This document shows, in pieces, positions 2,578 through 27,665 of a stretch of 27,665 nucleotides of DNA. Source of the DNA: a virus (Duplodnaviria > Caudoviricetes); IMG/VR virus record IMGVR_UViG_3300023296_000894, positions 1 to 27,665 of that record; one strand, written 5' to 3'. Every line of letters starts with the position of its first letter. The stretch's first letter is position 1. The position numbers were made by a program, and so were the translations under genes. Below the pieces are notes generated by a model. The model did no database searches and was not told where the DNA came from. It saw only the letters and a list, made by a program, of their open reading frames with translations.

Positions 2578-3252
2578 TCATTTGCCTATTGTACTAGATT
2601 CATACACTGAATTATGAGTTTGAGTACAGCGTATAAATGTTGTACATTTAGGCAGTTGCTTGATTGTACCGGCACCTACATAAGTACAAGTCGAACGGAC
2701 ACCTCCGAGGATATCCTGTACCGTATTGGCTACAGCACCTCTGTAAGGCACAAGCACTGTGCGTCCTTCTGACGAACGATAGTTTTTCAATCCGCCAAAA
2801 TGCTTGTCGTTTGCACTTTCACTGCTCATACCGTAGAACTGTACAAACTGTTTTGCTTCTACTAATTCTTCGCCGGTGTCATAGTGTATTTCACCAGTCT
2901 TAAATGCTCTGTTGATAATTTCGCCACCGCCTTCATCGTGTCCGGCAAGCATACCACCTGCCATTACAAAGTCTGCACCAGCAGCAAATGCTTTGGCTAC
3001 ATCGCCAGGGCAAGTGCAACCGCCATCAGCAATGATATGTCCACCAAGACCGTGAGCAGCATCGGCACATTCGATGACAGCTGAGAGTTGCGGGTAGCCC
3101 ACACCAGTCTGCAATCTCGTCGTGCATACGCTATTATGTACCACTACACCCTCGATATTGTATGAATGATCTTCTTCGACTTCAAGATCATATGTGTATC
3201 CATCATATGGTTCAATTTCAAGTATATCTATTTCAACTAATTCAAATTTCAT
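2578..3252 (-). CDS. guaC: Split intein C-part (40 aa) fused to the C-terminal half of GMP reductase
   Basis: MKFELVEI...[20 protein letters not shown]|[19 protein letters not shown]...[21 protein letters not shown]...FYGMSS. Confidence 0.93.
3133..3252 (-). mobile_element. Split intein C-fragment (IMPDH-1-like), ends His-Asn, +1 residue Ser
   Basis: Block F (TYDLEV..DHSY) and block G (VVHN) followed by Ser. Confidence 0.92.
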
Positions 3253-4069
3253 CTAAAATACTCCAGTCATTTTCTTTAATTTGTGATTCCCATATAACGA
3301 GATATCTATATCCGTTATCTTCTGCTAATTTTTGTTTTACGATATCGCGTTGCTTTTTATATTCTTGTCGTTCTGTTAATATATTATACACTTCGGGGTT
3401 CCCGTGCCAAAAATCTCCGTGAACCTCTAAAACAATATTGCTATTTATTAAAAAATCATACTGTGCTTTATTATGTAAAATGAAGTTATACTTAAAATTG
3501 ACGCCTAACTCTTGTAACTTTTGTTCTGTTGTTTTTTCTATTTTAGTTTTTTTAGGTCTACTATTAACAGATTTTATTCCCATTAATGAATAATATTCTT
3601 TAGGACGTTTGCCTACAGTTTTCATAAATTCGGACTGTTTCTTTTTAAATTCATCAGTATGAGTTTTTCCATAAAATCCGTTATCATTGCCATAGCGAGC
3701 ACATTTTTGGCGAAGTATTTCTTTGGTCTCGTCCGTGTGTGTTTTTCCATAGAACGCATTATTTTCGCCAACAAATCGATCCTTCATAAAATGCGATTGC
3801 TGTTTTTTTGTTTCCGTAGTATGATTTTTACCATAAAACGGATTACTTTCACCTACTTTGTTGCAACTTTGGCACATATATTCGTTTTTTAATAATGCCG
3901 ATCTAAAACCTACCTGCGTTAATGATTTACATTTATAACATCTGATTTCTATTTTGCCTAAATCACCGGAAGAAAGTTTCTCTCCATTTTCAAAGTAGGC
4001 AAAATTGTTTCTGCCTACTTTTTCAAATTTTATAATTTCCACACAATTTTTAAACATTTTAGATTTCAT
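3242..4069 (-). CDS. Free-standing homing endonuclease: Zn ribbon, three NUMOD3-like repeats and a Vsr/DUF559-like nuclease domain
   Basis: CYKC..CQSC; three N.FYGK.HT.E.K repeats; YDF....[11 protein letters not shown]...RD..KQ..A...[12 protein letters not shown]. Sits between the two intein halves. Confidence 0.88.
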
Positions 4070-4403
4070 ATCCTACTCCAATAGCAACTTTTATAGTGTT
4101 ATATTTATGCTTTAGAAGTAAATAATCCTTTGTTAAATCTTTTGCTTCGACCCATTCTGCATATTGATGAATATTATCATCTGTTACTGTTTCTCGATGT
4201 TTTTTATGTAAAACATAAAACTCGTGATTAGGAGTTGCTTTAATACCATTAATATTAACTATTGATTTTTTATCGTCAAATTTAAATGTATTAGTAACAG
4301 TTTTATAAGATCCAGTGTGAGTTAAAACTTTTTCACCTTGTTTAATATCTTCGATATTCTTTAAACATTTATCAGTCTTAACTTTTTGCCCAGGAGCAAA
4401 ACA
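4059..4403 (-). mobile_element. Split intein N-fragment
   Basis: Block A CFAPGQKV, IEDIKQGEKVLTHTG, block B ATPNHEFY, WVEAKDL, then a stop codon. Confidence 0.92.
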
Positions 4404-4985
4404 TCCAGGACCAATGCCCACCTTAATAATATCTGCTCCAGCAAGAATAAGTTCCTCCGTCATTTCTCTTGTAACCACATTACCTGCTATAATAACAAGA
4501 TGTGGAAAGCGTTTGCGTACTTCACGAACATGTTCAGCAAAGTGTTCTGAATATCCATTTGCAATGTCAATGCAAACATATTTTAGATTGTCTTCACATT
4601 TAGCATACACAGCGCACAGTTTCTCAAAGTCTGCTGTGCTGGTGCCTATGCTCATAGCCACATAGTCTGTGCGATTAAGTCCGTCACCGTAGAAAAACTC
4701 AATCAGTTCTTCCGCAGTGTAGGTTTTTACAAGGCAGGTAAAGATACCTTGTGCGCCCAACTCATCTGCCATAGCAAATGTGCCGACACCGTCCATGTTA
4801 GCAGCCATGATAGGTACACCTCGATAGTGAGGGTCTTCTGAGCAGTTGTCAGGGAAGTCTGGAATGTAATTTCTAAAATTTGTTTTACGTTCTAGACTAA
4901 CTTCACTACGACTTTTAAGTGTGCTGCGCTTGGGCCGGATCAGCACATCCTTGTAGTCTAATTTTACTTCGGACTCTAATTGCAT
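4059..4985 (-). CDS. guaC: N-terminal half of GMP reductase (194 aa) fused to split intein N-part (114 aa)
   Basis: KLDYKDVLIRPKRSTLKSRS, AANMDGVGTF, DIANGYSEHF, AGNVVT, GADIIKVGIGPG|CFAPG. Confidence 0.93.
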   Translation of the reverse strand: MQLESEVKLDYKDVLIRPKRSTLKSRSEVSLERKTNFRNYIPDFPDNCSEDPHYRGVPIMAANMDGVGTFAMADELGAQGIFTCLVKTYTAEELIEFFYGDGLNRTDYVAMSIGTSTADFEKLCAVYAKCEDNLKYVCIDIANGYSEHFAEHVREVRKRFPHLVIIAGNVVTREMTEELILAGADIIKVGIGPGCFAPGQKVKTDKCLKNIEDIKQGEKVLTHTGSYKTVTNTFKFDDKKSIVNINGIKATPNHEFYVLHKKHRETVTDDNIHQYAEWVEAKDLTKDYLLLKHKYNTIKVAIGVGYEI

Positions 4986-10945: not shown

Positions 10946-11172
10946 CCGCCGACATAAGTTTCTGTTTTTGGTCTATAAAAGTTTTTTTGATTGTGAAGCC
11001 GACCGAGGAGATCTTGTATCTCCTTTACCTCACGATCCGCAAGCTGCTGATTTTCAATGTCAGCAGCAGTTAATTTGTATTCAGTAACTGTGCGCTGTCT
11101 ATCACGTAGTGCATGTTCGATCATTTCGATGTCACGCACTGTTAGTTCAAATTCTGTATTGGGTTTTGTCAT
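10942..11172 (-). CDS. Hypothetical protein
   Basis: 76-aa ORF with ATGA overlaps on both sides. Confidence 0.7.
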   Translation of the reverse strand: MTKPNTEFELTVRDIEMIEHALRDRQRTVTEYKLTAADIENQQLADREVKEIQDLLGRLHNQKNFYRPKTETYVGG

Positions 11173-11756
11173 AGTGTGTCTGCTATTTTGTGATTAACTT
11201 CTGCGTGGCCTTGCTCGTCTGCTCTCACTGCTATTACAACATCACGCAATGTTGCGTCATCTGCTAGATTATAATAGTCACGAGCAATGTTGGGTGCAGG
11301 AATATTTTCTGTTCTTCCTGCATCAATCTCTTCCAGGTAGTGAGTGTAGCTGATCACTGCTTGATCTTCAAAGTAGCCTACCATTCTGTGTGCTGTGGTT
11401 GGGAAGAATACGTAAAGAATAAAATAAAAGTGCCAAAACACAAACTGTGCAAATAGAATCAACAGTCTTTCAAAGCGACTTGGCTTTGCGATCTCAACAA
11501 AGATCATAAGATGCATACGCTCGTTTTCTGCTTCTTCTAGCAGCGTTTTGATCCAGCCACGTTCGTCTGGTGCTATGTTGCGCAGGCTGCGTAGGTGCTG
11601 CCACATACCTGCTACCATGCCTGGAACACCTGCCACAGTCTCTAGAACAACTGCACGATGTCCATAGCGTTTGGCGAAGAATGTGTCCGCGAACCAACGA
11701 AAAGTCATTGTTAAAAAATAAGCAACTCTATCACTGAAGTCTTTGGGCTGTCTCAT
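11169..11756 (-). CDS. aox: Alternative oxidase (ubiquinol oxidase, di-iron)
   Basis: LETVAGVPGMV, HLRSLR, LLEEAENERMHL, HRMVGYFEDQAVISYT, PAPNIARDYY, VRADEQGH. Confidence 0.93.
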   Translation of the reverse strand: MRQPKDFSDRVAYFLTMTFRWFADTFFAKRYGHRAVVLETVAGVPGMVAGMWQHLRSLRNIAPDERGWIKTLLEEAENERMHLMIFVEIAKPSRFERLLILFAQFVFWHFYFILYVFFPTTAHRMVGYFEDQAVISYTHYLEEIDAGRTENIPAPNIARDYYNLADDATLRDVVIAVRADEQGHAEVNHKIADTL

Positions 11757-13366: not shown

Positions 13367-13434
13367 TGCTGGAAATCTCCTTTAGTATTTTTAGAGTAGT
13401 TGGGACTGCCATCCGCGAACTACATTATTATTTA
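13367..13434 (-). promoter_or_regulatory. TAAATA late promoter plus conserved structured leader (copy 1)
   Basis: TAAATA..TGTAGTTCGCGGATGGCAGTCCCAACTACTCTA..AGGAG..CAGCAATG; a homologue lies at 18676-18747. Confidence 0.75.
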
Positions 13435-16359: not shown

Positions 16360-16493
16360 AGCATTACTCCTAATAAAATTCCAAGTCCGAAAACAGCAAT
16401 TACAGTCCCAATCACATACCAAAAAGCAGGACCCAAAATCATTCCAGCAGCAAGAACGACCAAGTATGGAAATTCAATAATTTTTTTAAGCAT
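16356..16493 (-). CDS. Small membrane protein (45 aa, MLKKIIEFPYLVVLAAG...)
   Basis: Manually found; fills the gap with overlaps on both sides; strongly hydrophobic. Confidence 0.6.
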   Translation of the reverse strand: MLKKIIEFPYLVVLAAGMILGPAFWYVIGTVIAVFGLGILLGVML

Positions 16494-16845
16494 CTCCATA
16501 AGCCTTTAAAAAGTTTTCCATATACTTGCGAATGTTTTCCGCACCTACGGGATTCATTGAATGTACTAAATATCCAAAGCCCATGGGCAAACGCAGATTG
16601 TGATCCATGATATAATCACAGAACCATTTAGCAAAGGTGTAGCCAGTCTTTTCGCCATCACCAATGATGTAGTGTACATCTGCCAAATCATGATCAAATG
16701 ATATGAAAGTGGGCAAGCCATATTGCTCCACACACCACACAGCATCATCCATAGTGCGGCAGATAACTAGATCCTTATAAGGCCCATAGTTGTGACGCAC
16801 ATCTGCTGGAAAGCGTATGTCATCTAAAAAAAGTGTCCAAGCCAT
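16486..16845 (-). CDS. Cyclic-phosphate-processing receiver-domain protein
   Basis: LFLDDIR.P...ISFDHDL...KTGY..AKW...VHSMNPVGAENI signature. Start at 16845 after GGAGG. Confidence 0.8.
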   Translation of the reverse strand: MAWTLFLDDIRFPADVRHNYGPYKDLVICRTMDDAVWCVEQYGLPTFISFDHDLADVHYIIGDGEKTGYTFAKWFCDYIMDHNLRLPMGFGYLVHSMNPVGAENIRKYMENFLKAYGDA

Positions 16846-17081
16846 TATAGGCCTCCATATTTCAATACAAACAAAGTATAGCACTTTTCGTTAGCAAAGT
16901 CAACTCTTGTTTGGGGAATATATTGTGCCTTGAACTGTTTGAGTTCTTGATTTAGTGTATCAAGGTCAAAGCCTTCAAGGTTGTTTTGTTCAACTCCTCT
17001 ATCACGTAGGTCGCGAATAAAGTTTTGCCAGTTAGTAGGACACAAGGATAGGCCATCACCTAACCGTAGACTCACAGTCAT
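16845..17081 (-). CDS. Hypothetical protein
   Basis: Start MTVSLR at 17081 (ATGA overlap). Confidence 0.6.
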   Translation of the reverse strand: MTVSLRLGDGLSLCPTNWQNFIRDLRDRGVEQNNLEGFDLDTLNQELKQFKAQYIPQTRVDFANEKCYTLFVLKYGGL

Positions 17082-17958: not shown

Positions 17959-18048
17959 ATGTGTGTCTTTCGTTTGTTTCTATTACACATAAAGTATAGC
18001 ACAATCAAGAGAAAACGCAAGCAAAAAGTTGCCTGCGTTTTCAAAGGT

Positions 18049-18606
18049 TTACATACCTAACCACTTAGCACAAGCGTCCCACTTGACGTTTGTAGTGATG
18101 TTCTTCGCAATGTGCTGTAGCAGCAACTCTCGCAAGTCGTGGCCGTCCAACATACGGAAGATGAACTGAGCATCGGTTTTGTGTTCCATAGTAGGAACAA
18201 ACTCAGTAGCAATCCGCTTGCGGTCATTCTGATACATCAGTTCGCAACCAGTTCGATATACAGCCAAGCGATCCTCAGTTGATACAAATGCTCGCCAAAA
18301 ACGCAGTTCAAACTCGCGAATGCGTTCAACTTGAACAGAAGGCAACATGGGAATCACGTCGTCCACTTCTTCGTTGATGATTAGGTTGACAATGTTACGA
18401 TCAAACACAATGCGATCAATGGTCTTATGAATTCTAACATATTGATCTGCTTTGATTTTTACTCGGTGTCCATCTGCCAACGCAAGAACAAAGCCTTCTG
18501 CGTTTTCAAGGCCACGAGTAAATTCTATCAGAGAATCAATTTTTGTAAATGGTAGGATTGTATCTACCAATGGAATATTAAATTCTTGAATTTTGTCTAG
18601 TAGCAT
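18049..18606 (-). CDS. RNA ligase 1 (T4 RnlA-like), C-terminal fragment
   Basis: Motif IV (AEGFVL), motif V (RVKIKADQYVRIHK) and a helical C-domain. ATG at 18606 with GAGG RBS. Confidence 0.85.
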   Translation of the reverse strand: MLLDKIQEFNIPLVDTILPFTKIDSLIEFTRGLENAEGFVLALADGHRVKIKADQYVRIHKTIDRIVFDRNIVNLIINEEVDDVIPMLPSVQVERIREFELRFWRAFVSTEDRLAVYRTGCELMYQNDRKRIATEFVPTMEHKTDAQFIFRMLDGHDLRELLLQHIAKNITTNVKWDACAKWLGM

Positions 18607-18634
18607 AGTTGGTTGCCTCTTACTGTGTTTAGCA

Positions 18635-18663
18635 AGTATAGCACTGCAAATATAGTTTGTCAA
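18635..18663 (-). promoter_or_regulatory. Sigma70-like promoter for the ligase C-fragment
   Basis: TTGACA-17 nt-TATACT. Confidence 0.85.
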
Positions 18664-18675
18664 CTGATAAAAGGC

Positions 18676-18747
18676 TAAATAAAAGTGTAGTTCACGGACT
18701 TCGTGGTGGTCGTCCCAACTACTCTATAACTAAGTAGGAGTTACAGC
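18676..18747 (+). promoter_or_regulatory. TAAATA late promoter plus conserved structured leader (copy 2)
   Basis: TAAATA..TGTAGTTCACGGAC-N12-GTCCCAACTACTCTA..AGGAG..CAGCATG. Confidence 0.75.
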
Positions 18748-19542
18748 ATGAATATTTATATACAGATTATAAGTGATCTCTCACAAAAGAACAAGTATTT
18801 TTCTTGGTGGCAGTCTATGATCGAACGTGGTATACAAAGAGCCAGCACTCGAGAAGAAGCCAAATCTCTGCTAGGATATGTAGAAGGACACCACATAGTG
18901 CCTGTTAGTTTTAACCTCGGTGGCAAAAACGATAGCGATAACTTTGTTTATCTTACTGCAAAAGAGCATATTATGATACATAGACTAATGTGTAAATTTC
19001 TCACTAATGAATATAGAATAAAATCATTGAGAGCATTTCATTGCATGTGCTTTAAAGATAACGGTGGTCAAAACAAAAGATTAGCATCGCTACACCAGTT
19101 AGCAAAAGCAAGAGAGGCAGTATCTGAATCGAACAAAGGCAAACGAGGCCCAATCGGTGTTCCAGCCTGGTTTACAGAATCAACCGATTTTGATATTTTT
19201 TGCGATCGATTAGGAGAATTGGTAGCAGAAGGATTAAGTGATCCGCAAATAGGTAAAAAGTATGACGTAAGTGCTACCGCTATTTTTAATTGGAGAAATA
19301 AACTAAATCTCAGAAGACGTCGATGGCAACTGAGAGATAAAAAATGGTTACACAATCACTATGTGAATAAAAAATTGTCTGCAGAGAAAATTGCGTCTCT
19401 AATAGGTTGCAGCGGAACAGCCGTTCAACAATATTTGATTAAATTTAATATACCTATTAGAGACGCAAACGAACGCCAAAAATCAAGAACTGATCGGAAG
19501 ATACTCACCAGTAATGTTGTGACGAACTGCCAACAAGGTTAG
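18748..19542 (+). CDS. HNH homing endonuclease (MobE-like) with two C-terminal HTH motifs
   Basis: YVEGHHIVPVS...GG.NDSDNFVYLTAKEHIMIHRLM; LSDPQIGKKYDVSATAIFNW; LSAEKIASLIGCSGTAVQQYL. The only convincing plus-strand gene. Confidence 0.9.
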   Translation: MNIYIQIISDLSQKNKYFSWWQSMIERGIQRASTREEAKSLLGYVEGHHIVPVSFNLGGKNDSDNFVYLTAKEHIMIHRLMCKFLTNEYRIKSLRAFHCMCFKDNGGQNKRLASLHQLAKAREAVSESNKGKRGPIGVPAWFTESTDFDIFCDRLGELVAEGLSDPQIGKKYDVSATAIFNWRNKLNLRRRRWQLRDKKWLHNHYVNKKLSAEKIASLIGCSGTAVQQYLIKFNIPIRDANERQKSRTDRKILTSNVVTNCQQG

Positions 19543-20076
19543 TGTATCTTCTTCGTATGGAAGAACAATTTGATTGAATGGACTACACCATTCAAAAATT
19601 GGAGTTAGTTTTTCACTGATACACCAGGCAGCGAAGTCTTTGTATCGAGTGTTTTTGGCTATAAACTCTTCGGCTTGCATAGCCACTTCAGTGATTCCCA
19701 TTTTAGTCATCCAACGGATATAACCATCAACTAGCATAGGGTGAATCATTGATCCATCCAGTTTTTCCATGATAACATGAGGCTGTGATAGATTAACTAA
19801 ATGCGGCTGAGTTTCTTCCTTTTCACCAACATTAAAAAATTTCACAAACGGACGAGCAGCAATTTCACCGCTTGGGGCGAACTTCAAGCCTCTACACTCA
19901 CGTCGAACAGCACCACCTAAGTCATCGGGCCCAGTCATATTGAAGGTGTCAGCCATAGCCACCACATAGTTTACCACACTATATCCTTCACGCTCTGCTA
20001 CGATAAATTCGTCGCGGCCTTCAATGTGAGGAAGCACATCATCAAGATGACGGATTTCAGGGAATTGATAGTTCAT
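19483..20076 (-). CDS. RNA ligase 1 (T4 RnlA-like), N-terminal fragment
   Basis: RECRGLKF, ARPFVKFFNVGE, motif I EKLDGSMI, TPIFEW..P.NQIV..Y, LLAVRHNITGEY. Confidence 0.9.
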   Translation of the reverse strand: MNYQFPEIRHLDDVLPHIEGRDEFIVAEREGYSVVNYVVAMADTFNMTGPDDLGGAVRRECRGLKFAPSGEIAARPFVKFFNVGEKEETQPHLVNLSQPHVIMEKLDGSMIHPMLVDGYIRWMTKMGITEVAMQAEEFIAKNTRYKDFAAWCISEKLTPIFEWCSPFNQIVLPYEEDTLTLLAVRHNITGEYLPISS

Positions 20077-20107: not shown

Positions 20108-20136
20108 ACTATAGCACAAGAGTAGACTGTTGTCAA
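20108..20136 (-). promoter_or_regulatory. Sigma70-like promoter with flanking inverted repeat
   Basis: TTGACA-17 nt-TATAGT; GTCTACTCT...AGAGTAGAC brackets the -10. Confidence 0.8.
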
Positions 20137-20672
20137 GCAGGTTCTGCGTAGTCAATTCCAAGCAAGGCCCCGTGCATATCATAGAAGGTGATCATATCAA
20201 ACCCTTCGTCAGCAGTGGGCATCACAAACGATTCAATCATATTGCTCAAGATGTGCTGTGGGATAGTCTTGCCAGGACGATTTGCAAGACGCTGTGCCCA
20301 ATCTTCCTTGTCACCTGAGTAATCGCTTGCAGGTGGAACAATACACTCACAGCGAACCTGATAGCCAGCCTGACGCATACGATTGATAATCTTTGCTCGC
20401 TTCTTAACTCCCAAGGTGGTTTGGTCCCAGATGATGTCCTGGCGTTCTTTGATAGCATAAGCAAGATCAATATCGGCTTCTGCTGTAGCACTTTTGATAT
20501 GCTTCTCAAACACCTCGTCATAGGTCTTGCCCAAGAATTTAGCAATACGTTCAAGAATGTTGTCAGTGCTGTAGACAAACACATCAGGATCTATTGTGCT
20601 CATATCGCGAACACGAGTTGACTTGCCCATTGCAGGCAAGCCAACCATTACAGTGCAGATAGGCTTAGACAT
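20133..20672 (-). CDS. P-loop kinase, polynucleotide 5'-kinase-like
   Basis: MVGLPAMGKST Walker A, STDNI, IIWDQT, RLANRPGKTIP. Confidence 0.85.
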   Translation of the reverse strand: MSKPICTVMVGLPAMGKSTRVRDMSTIDPDVFVYSTDNILERIAKFLGKTYDEVFEKHIKSATAEADIDLAYAIKERQDIIWDQTTLGVKKRAKIINRMRQAGYQVRCECIVPPASDYSGDKEDWAQRLANRPGKTIPQHILSNMIESFVMPTADEGFDMITFYDMHGALLGIDYAEPA

Positions 20673-21121
20673 TAGAAGTCCTCCTCACCTTGGTACACGT
20701 TGAACACAAAGATACCGTTATCACGCCACATGCGAACCACTCTGGGCCTATCATCAAACACCATGTCAGGCTTGCGATTAAACGCAAGAACAATATCGTC
20801 CAGGATTTCCTGCTTCACAATGTCGTCGCTGCGGAAGTCGTCTGCCTTACGCATCCACAGATGCGAACTTGGCATCCAGAATTCGTTGGCATCCAGCCAC
20901 GCGACTGTAGCATCTCGAGTGCGCTCATTACGCCCGCTGGCAAACACAATGTCGTGTCCTGCGTCACGCAGTGCAAAGAACGCAGCCGCAACGTAAGGGT
21001 TCACAGCATCATTGGGGATGCCAGCGTCAAACGCCTTCCAGTTCTTTGGCTTGCTGCGAACATAGTCCAGCCGATGCTCGATGTTAGCAAGAGTTCCGTC
21101 AATATCAAATACTACTAGCAT
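20672..21121 (-). CDS. HAD phosphatase, polynucleotide 3'-phosphatase-like (PseT C-domain)
   Basis: VVFDIDGTLA, SGR, LWMR...DFRSDDIVKQEI, FDDRPRVVRMWR..GI. Confidence 0.9.
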   Translation of the reverse strand: MLVVFDIDGTLANIEHRLDYVRSKPKNWKAFDAGIPNDAVNPYVAAAFFALRDAGHDIVFASGRNERTRDATVAWLDANEFWMPSSHLWMRKADDFRSDDIVKQEILDDIVLAFNRKPDMVFDDRPRVVRMWRDNGIFVFNVYQGEEDF

Positions 21122-26282: not shown

Positions 26283-26816
26283 TTATATAGAGCAAGATTC
26301 ACATTCAGAATCATCGGGTTCTGCTTGCGGAATTTCTCCCATCATCTTAGAAACGTCTATTTCTCCTTGGCCATCGTTTGTTTGGAAATAATAAAGCTGT
26401 TTTCCGCCTAGCTTGTAGAACATCAACAGATGCTGCAACATTGTACTAAGTGGAATCTTCTCGTCTTCGTAGTACTGTGGATTGTAGCTGGTGTTTACAC
26501 TGATGCCTTGATCAATATATTTCTGCAACACTGCCATGATCTTTAAATAGCCTTCTGGGCTACGCTGATCCCACAGTAGATCATATTTGTTCTTGAGCTT
26601 TTTAAACTCTGGCACTACCTGCTTGAGTACGCCATGCTTGCTCTGCTTGATTGAGATTAGACTGCGCGGTGGTTCAATACCGTTGGTAGCATTTGCAATT
26701 TGCGCACTAGTGTTATGACTAATGCATCCATTTGACAAGGTATAAGTTTCGTTGTCAGTTGAAACATCCCAAGTGTGTTCTGTTCCTGCGTCTCTTGTAA
26801 TACGTTTAATTTTCAT
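26283..26816 (-). CDS. nrdA: Split intein C-part (35 aa) fused to the C-terminal 142 aa of ribonucleotide reductase alpha
   Basis: MKIKRI...TWDVST.NETYTLSNGCISHN|TSAQIANATNGIEPPR...QKYIDQGISVN..Y...KQLYY...CESCSI. ATG at 26816 with GAGGA RBS. Confidence 0.92.
   Translation of the reverse strand: MKIKRITRDAGTEHTWDVSTDNETYTLSNGCISHNTSAQIANATNGIEPPRSLISIKQSKHGVLKQVVPEFKKLKNKYDLLWDQRSPEGYLKIMAVLQKYIDQGISVNTSYNPQYYEDEKIPLSTMLQHLLMFYKLGGKQLYYFQTNDGQGEIDVSKMMGEIPQAEPDDSECESCSI
26712..26816 (-). mobile_element. Split intein C-fragment, +1 residue Thr
   Basis: Blocks F and G ending SHN before the NrdA TSAQ. Confidence 0.85.
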
Positions 26817-27665
26817 TTTAATAATTCCTCTTTTGTAATTGAACATTTTCCTTGTTTTGACACGTTATCTTCCCAGGGAATAAATTCTAAATTTTGCAAG
26901 CTTCCTAATAGCGCAGGATCAATTCCTTCAATAAATCCTCGAGATATTGAGAATTTATGATCTAGATGATAGGCGTTGTTGATACCTGCTCGGCCTCTTT
27001 TTTCATAATTCACTAATAAATTTAGGTCATGTTGATTAGTATATTTCCATACTTCTTTGTGATACTTTTTATAATTGGATAAGTCACAATATGGAACCCA
27101 AATGCCATTTTCTTCTAATGTTTTTCTGATCTTTGATTGCCGTTCTTTAAAAACGTTTTCTCCTAGGTTATTAATTGTGTTGTGACCTCTATTTTCCTTT
27201 ATCTTATGATTAATCTCGTTTTCATTTAATAACGTTGTCTTTTCTAAATATTGTCTGTAAGAATCAATACCTATTTTTTGATCGTGTATTTCTCTAATTT
27301 TTCTTTTTGCATAATCAAAAGACTTTCCCCTATCCAGATAATACTGAATATGCATCGGACTATTTTTATGTTGGAACTCTATTGCGCATGTTACAGCATC
27401 TTCGGGAGTATGTCCCTTCCTTATATAGTATTCTTTACAACGAGGTGACTGTGATCTTCCATTCTTCTTAACAGTATCCCAACCTTTTTGTAAGGACTTA
27501 CTCTTCCAATTGTTATACCGCCGGGTGCCTTCTTCGTTTCCATATTTTTTAATAAAGTTTGCCTGTGACGTTGCTTTGTCTGCTTTAAACTTTGAAATAG
27601 TAGCAAGTGCTTGTTCCTGGGAACAAGCATCTCTTTTCATTACATATTCCGGATCATATGGGTTA
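26813..27665 (-). CDS. HNH-type homing endonuclease, 5'-truncated by the window edge
   Basis: YHLDHKFSISRGF......LLGSLQNLEFIPWEDNVSK. The frame stays open upstream of ATG 27640 (NPYDPEYV) to the edge. Confidence 0.8.
   Translation of the reverse strand, partial: NPYDPEYVMKRDACSQEQALATISKFKADKATSQANFIKKYGNEEGTRRYNNWKSKSLQKGWDTVKKNGRSQSPRCKEYYIRKGHTPEDAVTCAIEFQHKNSPMHIQYYLDRGKSFDYAKRKIREIHDQKIGIDSYRQYLEKTTLLNENEINHKIKENRGHNTINNLGENVFKERQSKIRKTLEENGIWVPYCDLSNYKKYHKEVWKYTNQHDLNLLVNYEKRGRAGINNAYHLDHKFSISRGFIEGIDPALLGSLQNLEFIPWEDNVSKQGKCSITKEELLK

Follow-up and report, generated by a model that had tools for sequence, protein, structure and literature searches.

We analyzed a 27,665-nt stretch of DNA from a tailed virus (IMG/VR record IMGVR_UViG_3300023296_000894, positions 1 to 27,665; hereafter the window). 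This 27.7-kb fragment comes from a T4-like phage and encodes an RNA ligase of the T4 Rnl1 family in two separate open reading frames (ORFs), with an endonuclease gene inverted in the gap. The upstream ORF (N-half; 19483..20076, minus strand) encodes 197 amino acids (aa), matches PF09511 (E 6e-27) and PHROG 562, and ends in LLAVRHNITGEYLPISS before its stop codon. The downstream ORF (C-half; 18049..18606, minus strand) encodes 185 aa from an ATG at 18606, matches PHROG 562, and carries a helical C-terminal domain after the catalytic motifs. Between them, on the plus strand and antisense to the ligase, is a free-standing HNH endonuclease gene (18748..19542; 264 aa) with C-terminal helix-turn-helix-like repeats, which matches PHROG 655 (E 8e-22) and, weakly, Pfam HNH; its 3'-terminal part extends across the final 60 nt of the N-half. 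The two ligase ORFs are 876 nt apart, so the single polypeptide typical of the T4 Rnl1 family is not encoded here. A preliminary description of this locus, made from the sequence alone, had proposed a MobE-like HNH gene on the opposite strand between two intact Rnl1-type frames. We found all three frames open and, beyond that description, the antisense overlap of the HNH gene with the N-half. The best annotated phage matches of the HNH protein, which share about 32% identity with it across the N-terminal 136–170 residues, bear the MobE label. The same arrangement with the same HNH gene is present in other contigs (loci L072 and L205) in which the ligase is 68–82% identical, and thus the split locus is not an assembly artefact.

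Each ligase ORF is preceded by its own sigma70-type promoter-like site, as had been noted earlier. The site upstream of the N-half (TTGACA-17-TATAGT with an extended TG; 20108..20136, minus strand) and the site for the C-half (TTGACA-17-TATACT; 18635..18663, minus strand) both match 11/12 consensus positions, and a Shine-Dalgarno-like GAGG (18616..18619, minus strand) is present 9 nt before the C-half ATG. Of 14 such hits in the region, these two score highest; shuffled sequence gives a mean of 9.1 hits (standard deviation 3.5), so the total of 14 is only a modest excess. Strict TTGAC-17-TAnnnT matches in the window are all (12/12) on the coding, minus strand. Only 141 nt of non-coding sequence lie between the HNH start and the C-half ATG; this spacer holds the late leader of the endonuclease on one strand and, back to back with it, the C-half promoter-like site and Shine-Dalgarno-like word on the other. 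Directly after the C-half there is a terminator-like hairpin (18011..18042, minus strand; 14 pairs and a T-rich tail, a consensus match only). When we compared the 13 split alleles described below, a Shine-Dalgarno-like word precedes the C-half ATG in 13/13, and the best promoter-like site before the C-half scores 9–11/12 in the 10/10 alleles with an insert and 7–8/12 in the three without. The junction of this single copy folds no better than its shuffles.

To compare the two halves with intact ligases, we aligned them to Rnl1 homologues. The N-half covers positions 28–195 of the PHROG 562 (Rnl1) profile (E 1e-43) and the C-half covers positions 200–369 (E 4e-23), and therefore the halves are contiguous and do not overlap. 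In a search of PDB sequences, both halves match T4 Rnl1 structures (2C5U, E 7e-14 and 2e-11), and together they show homology over the nucleotidyltransferase and C-terminal helical domains of the family. The break corresponds to about T4 residue 193–194 and lies in a variable linker of the nucleotidyltransferase domain. In an AlphaFold model of an intact relative, L064 (predicted local distance difference test score (pLDDT) 93; predicted template modelling score 0.82), the break region falls within the irregular segment that connects the final N-half strand to the helix preceding motif IV. The division of catalytic motifs that had been read from the sequence was borne out by the alignment: KLDGS (K105) and FEW (E162) are in the N-half, while EGFV (E37) and KIK (K50, K52) are in the C-half. 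We take these residues to belong to motifs I, Ia, III, IV and V; T4 residue numbers come from the alignment. R62, K79, K105-D107-G108, K125, E162 and R185 of the N-half correspond to T4 R54, K75, K99, D101, G102, K119, E159 and R182, and E37-G38, K50, K52 and Y56 of the C-half correspond to T4 E227, G228, K240, K242 and Y246. All 13 of these T4 landmark residues (R54 to Y246) are invariant in 13/13 split alleles. T4 K99, E159 and E227 are required for activity, as reported in the available text of PMC6035275, and thus neither half should be able to work alone.

We found that nothing essential is missing at the junction. Between the positions of T4 Y189 and E227, the N-half tail and the C-half head together span 40–45 residues in 13/13 split alleles, as compared to 37 residues in T4 and mostly 40–42 in long-linker intact relatives. 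Because the tail and head together are as long as the linker of these relatives, no residues have been lost and no tail has been added. We also considered oppositely charged tails of the Aeh1 type and rejected them: there is no extra length, the net charge of the ends runs from –2 to +2 with no consistent charge, and the last residue of the N-half is not conserved.

We then predicted the structure of the two chains together. The prediction places the halves together with a score of 0.94, as compared to 0.01 for the best of 3 controls, with 147–148 contacts, agreement between runs in at least 97% of contacts and a partner pLDDT of at least 90. The score mark was reached by 116/157 solved pairs and 2/215 mismatched pairs, counts that are only roughly valid for this job. 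The tightest predicted contacts join N-half residues 101–105 to C-half residues 37–42 and N-half residues 180–182 to C-half residues 11–14, and nearly all predicted contacts of the C chain are within its residues 1–63. The model rebuilds the site around K105 and in this sense the halves fit, which is a statement about fit and not about binding, and the result may reflect likeness to the solved T4 Rnl1.

To find out where else the break occurs, we searched with the split halves as queries and collected 212 redundant loci (161 intact, 32 split and 19 partial or unclassified); given this choice of queries, the counts should not be read as frequencies. The 32 split loci reduce to 13 alleles, and 154/161 intact loci passed the length filters and gave 87 unique proteins. 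The 13 split alleles are 34–82% identical and share the same break; however, what lies in the gap differs. Five alleles have an inverted HNH gene, four an inverted GIY-YIG-like gene, one a small same-strand ORF, and three have no insert. The five HNH copies are 59–86% identical, and the ratio of nonsynonymous to synonymous substitution rates (dN/dS) is 0.10–0.24 in 10/10 pairs among them, indicating purifying selection. The GIY-YIG-like inserts were assigned by Pfam in L063, by 44% identity to L063 in L109, and by eye only in L003 and L196. In the three insert-free alleles (L004, L208 and L146), the gap between the halves is +1, –11 or –14 nt, and GGAG is present 6–9 nt before the C-half ATG.

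Clustered protein sequences, which are known from the proteins alone, show the same break. Among the best 120 of 194 C-half clusters, 105 are stand-alone proteins of 182–197 aa with motif IV at residue 37 or 38; their median pairwise identity is 48%, and E37, G38, K50, K52 and Y56 are invariant in 105/105. Among the best 120 of 568 N-half clusters, 105 end no more than 8 residues from the GxY motif, 7 do not fit this pattern and 8 are longer. In cultured phages, wherever both halves have a match among the best 40 of 1689 and 40 of 69 records, the two matches are adjacent as in intact genes. The proposal that the ligase is broken by the inverted HNH gene is refined and broadened by these results: the HNH gene is in the gap, but the break is more than an isolated product of this endonuclease. 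Judged from the sequences, a large phage clade has inherited the split, and within it the endonuclease has been replaced by others or is missing.

Trees built from different regions of the ligase do not agree. In the tree of the C-half head, 11 core split alleles form one clade (Shimodaira–Hasegawa-like approximate likelihood ratio support 92–93, from only 48 columns). In a careful N-half tree, which left out L109, L075 and L199 as long branches, 11 split alleles form a clade with support 100/99 and L063 is placed beside it (79/96); L109 sits apart in the full tree. In contrast, in the tree of the C-terminal domain, split alleles are interleaved with intact ones (10 changes) and a single clade of split alleles is rejected (approximately unbiased test, p 1.5e-5). 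These trees suggest that the two parts of the catalytic domain have mostly been inherited together, and that split and intact alleles exchange the helical domain. L208, an insert-free allele whose N-half is 93% identical to that of the window, nests among HNH-bearing alleles, so loss of the endonuclease is favoured there; in general, an endonuclease may have made the first break or may have invaded one that already existed. The closest intact ligases (L005, L011, L064, L068 and relatives; 24/81) have EGD at motif IV instead of EG followed by an aromatic or aliphatic residue, and a shorter linker of 34–40 residues. A quick tree had raised the idea that this short-linker group consists of re-fused split alleles, and the careful N-half tree does not support it.

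To ask whether both halves are maintained, we calculated dN/dS by the Nei–Gojobori method. Between the window and its nearest alleles (dS 0.7–1.8), dN/dS is 0.07–0.14 in the N-half, 0.10–0.21 in the C-half head and 0.12–0.18 in the rest of the C-half; the relaxed selection that would have spoken against a working enzyme is not seen in these pairs, and both halves are under purifying selection.

Several observations weigh against a working two-chain ligase. When all split pairs with 0.05<dS<2 are included, the C-half has a higher median dN/dS (head 0.23, 37/78 pairs, maximum 1.10; rest 0.40, 28/78 pairs, maximum 0.95) than the N-half (0.15, 20/78 pairs). These distant-pair values are probably inflated by dS saturation, and the intact-allele medians of 0.14–0.17, which were filtered to a proportion of nonsynonymous differences (pN) below 0.25, are not like for like with the split pairs. 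L030 and L019, which come from the same phage and have flanks that are 99% identical, have deleted about 2.56 kb corresponding to about window 19663–17105; this takes out the end of the N-half, the HNH gene and the whole C-half. The deletion joint is an imperfect 11-nt similarity (L030:3402-3412 and L019:1752-1762), and each remnant has a one-base frameshift, at different places but both in homopolymer runs, which could reflect either decay or sequencing error. In L091 and L092, the match is confined to the final 30 codons of the C-half. Deletions in near-identical strains indicate that some populations can do without the ligase locus. A conditional need would be expected, since the annotation of T4 rnlA ties its requirement to tRNA repair in restrictive prr hosts. 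On the other side, in favour of a working ligase, the split gene is the sole PF09511 match in the one complete genome checked, G002 (194,645 nt), which has no PF09414 match; a PF09414-type ligase is present in 2 of the other 4 records and is a possible functional backup. Finally, all three insert-free alleles share a +1 frame offset that could be bridged by frameshifting.

Taken together, these data make it likely that the two genes encode halves of one T4-type RNA ligase that work as a non-covalent heterodimer without splicing, with an active site drawn from both chains. The interpretation given in the preliminary description is supported: four of its proposed checks were run (contiguity of the halves, completeness of the junction and of the catalytic residues, purifying selection on both halves, and a two-chain model), and each gave a favourable result. 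In the two-chain model, the first ~60 residues of the C chain would slot beta-strands (the IPLV strand, motif IV and motif V) into the sheet of the N chain beside K105; a fold held by strand insertion is predicted to need no added tails. Each half would be transcribed and translated independently, with the back-to-back promoter supplying the C chain, while the inverted endonuclease would be transcribed late from its own leader and the HNH gene would be mobile by homing. Most alleles would have inherited the break from a common ancestor, and the gap would later have been filled by different endonucleases or by none. Upstream of the N-half, on the same strand, are a P-loop polynucleotide-kinase-like gene (20133..20672; Pfam AAA_33 E 3.8e-13; PHROG 505 E 8.7e-10) and a stand-alone PNKP-type HAD 3'-phosphatase gene (20672..21121; Pfam HAD_PNKP E 3.5e-30; PHROG 415/505). 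From their position and domain content, these are presumably the RNA end-healing partners of the ligase, and together the three activities would seal broken tRNA or other RNA.

We considered it improbable that the halves assemble but need a helper or have a changed role, such as adenylyl transfer only or tail-fibre attachment, in place of ordinary RNA sealing. T4 rnlA is annotated with a second role in tail-fibre attachment, separate promoters permit unequal expression of the halves, and the C-terminal domain is exchanged with intact alleles, all of which fit such a change. However, the full catalytic set is kept, the kinase and phosphatase genes are adjacent, and the model, with the caveat of its likeness to T4 Rnl1 given above, joins the chains without a third partner.

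Somewhat less probable still is that the halves are rejoined by RNA splicing, by ribosomal bypassing or, in insert-free alleles, by a +1 frameshift. Group I introns with endonuclease ORFs do occur in T4-like phages (PMC2988022, in the text available), and the frames of L004, L208 and L146 are offset in the way that a frameshift would need. In contrast, as the preliminary description had held, we found neither an intein nor an intron. Pfam gave no Hint or intein match in either half, in the same search in which the intein pieces of another gene of the window (IMPDH, below) matched weakly, below the cut-off, and the alignment leaves no room at the junction for the parts of a split intein. Rfam gave no intron family at E up to 10 (three weak non-intron matches, E 2.5–8). 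The gap is taken up by the antisense HNH ORF, which also extends into the N-half, and the only 141 non-coding nt hold two promoters and two ribosome sites. By eye, the DNA next to the N-half stop has nothing common to all inserts, and no slippery site was seen. A stop, a Shine-Dalgarno-like word and an ATG are at the same position in every allele, insert-free ones included. Judged from this anatomy, the halves are likely not joined by splicing.

The weakest alternative, in which a homing endonuclease carries a ligase that is broken, non-functional or decaying, draws on the deletions in L019 and L030 and on the higher dN/dS of distant C-half pairs, but it is very unlikely given open frames and invariant catalytic residues in 13/13 alleles and in 105/105 C-halves that are otherwise so diverged, the low dN/dS of the closest pairs of the window, and retention of the split in three alleles that have no endonuclease.

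A broader version of the two-chain ligase, which we regard as speculative and rather unlikely as a whole, is an old and stable two-subunit RNA ligase family in which the break is a permanent landing site for unrelated endonucleases and the separately promoted C subunit, with a helical domain that is freely swapped with intact alleles, can be exchanged or mixed between co-infecting phages, changing which broken tRNAs are repaired. In T4, the C-terminal helical domain of Rnl1 has a role in specificity.

The closest known arrangement is nrdA-a/mobE/nrdA-b of Aeromonas phage Aeh1, as described in the available parts of Crona et al., 2010 (PMC3045599) and by Friedrich et al., 2007, as cited there and in PMC2988022. 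There, as here, a free-standing HNH gene lies inside an enzyme gene, and active-site residues are on two independently translated chains that are not spliced, which for the ligase is read from sequence. In Aeh1, the two chains depend on added tails of opposite charge and are translated from a single operon transcript; among 1200 other nrdA sequences, the authors noted no split one. In contrast, the ligase has no tails, its endonuclease is inverted, its C-half has its own promoter-like site, and the break is common to >100 sequence clusters with endonucleases that are interchangeable or absent. Activity has been demonstrated for Aeh1 NrdA, whereas the ligase pair is known from sequence and a model.

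Aeromonas phages 25 and 44RR (PMC2988022, in part) have a split gene 43 (43A/43B) that, like the ligase, has stayed split around differing inserts (the seg43 endonuclease or an untranslated spacer); there, too, either the split or the invasion may have come first. The products of split gene 43 and of T4 topoisomerase gene 60, which is split by mobA, co-purify and are active (PMC2988022). These are different enzymes, and the ligase is cut within one small catalytic domain, between its nucleotidyltransferase motifs. The fractured genes of Dassa et al., 2009 (PMC2677866, in part) are also metagenomic phage genes in which two ORFs surround a free-standing endonuclease with a late promoter and hairpin; unlike the ligase, they are rejoined by split inteins, with the exception of an sbcD-like case that has no intein but, unlike the ligase, has extra terminal residues. 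In the text available, the fractured genes of that study include a DNA ligase and no RNA ligase. As compared to T4 RNA ligase 1 (RnlA/gp63; PDB 2C5U, 5TT6) with Pnkp (PMC3400036, in part), the family and catalytic residues are the same and a kinase and phosphatase are nearby; however, T4 Rnl1 is a single chain, whereas the ligase here has two chains, and the neighbouring kinase and phosphatase are likewise encoded by separate genes. We did not find a split Rnl1 in the literature searched, outside which most subscription journals fall, nor in the accessible text of PMC3400036, PMC6035275 or bioRxiv 10.1101/2025.01.02.630785.

If the pair is active, it would be a naturally two-chain covalent nucleotidyltransferase (ligase) fold that is cut between catalytic motifs. 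It would also mean that an endonuclease-associated break needs no intron, intein or tail to be tolerated, that it can become widespread throughout a phage clade and that it can persist after the endonuclease is gone. The alleles would provide many natural replicates for the question raised in Edgell's review, how split phage enzymes come together and which was first, the split or the invader, and a nature-tested split site for engineering conditional RNA ligases. The break would further account for a family of 185-aa proteins that mostly have no Pfam match.

The leader of the HNH gene (about 18674..18747, plus strand) consists of a late-promoter-like TAAATA at 18676–18681, a conserved stem GTAGTT...AACTAC at 18687–18722 and AGGAG at 18736–18740. 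As a single copy, its fold is no better than shuffles (z 0.36), and it has no Rfam match. We had considered this DNA as a ligase-specific element and rejected the idea, as the leader precedes endonuclease-like ORFs at many loci. This strongly conserved leader, TAAATA, then TAGTTCRCG, a variable hairpin and CCCAACTACTCTA, then a Shine-Dalgarno sequence, is present before diverse HNH and GIY-YIG ORFs, with copies also near window 13392–13424 and at loci L214–L338, and we estimated ~880 such stretches in the viral collection. In 117 distinct copies, TAAATA is upstream in 116, the variable inner part folds better than its shuffles in 108, and a strict outward sigma70 site is present in only 16. 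The leader may be the motif pair of Dassa Fig. S4. At L247, a GIY-YIG-like gene that has this leader and a promoter is oriented divergently from an intact-looking Rnl1-like ORF (411 aa, starting MNYTFPIIKN), and this cassette is upstream of the ligase, not inside it. Where the N-half and the endonuclease gene converge at L003:3575-3610 and L209:710-745, their ends make up a perfect inverted repeat, which gives both proteins identical last residues (MLR; NLGH) and is possibly a bidirectional terminator.

Elsewhere in the window, an IMPDH/GMP-reductase (inosine monophosphate dehydrogenase/guanosine monophosphate reductase) gene (2578–4985, minus strand) is fractured by a split intein: its N-part ends in a Hint segment, its C-part starts with an intein C segment ending HN/S, and a same-strand NUMOD3 endonuclease ORF (3242–4069) lies between, the arrangement described in the available text of Dassa et al., 2009. 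A C-terminal fragment of nrdA (26283–27640, minus strand), whose N-part is outside the window, starts with a sequence that by eye resembles an intein C-part (...SHN/T) and is preceded by an overlapping endonuclease-like ORF. Judged from these features, it is probably a second split-intein fractured gene, which would bring the number of fractured genes in 27 kb to three. The window also carries auxiliary genes (484–1702, 11169–11756 and 16486–16884, minus strand) for a ferredoxin-dependent bilin reductase, heme oxygenase, alternative oxidase and cREC_REC, the last being a cyclic-phosphate-processing receiver-domain gene downstream of the ligase.

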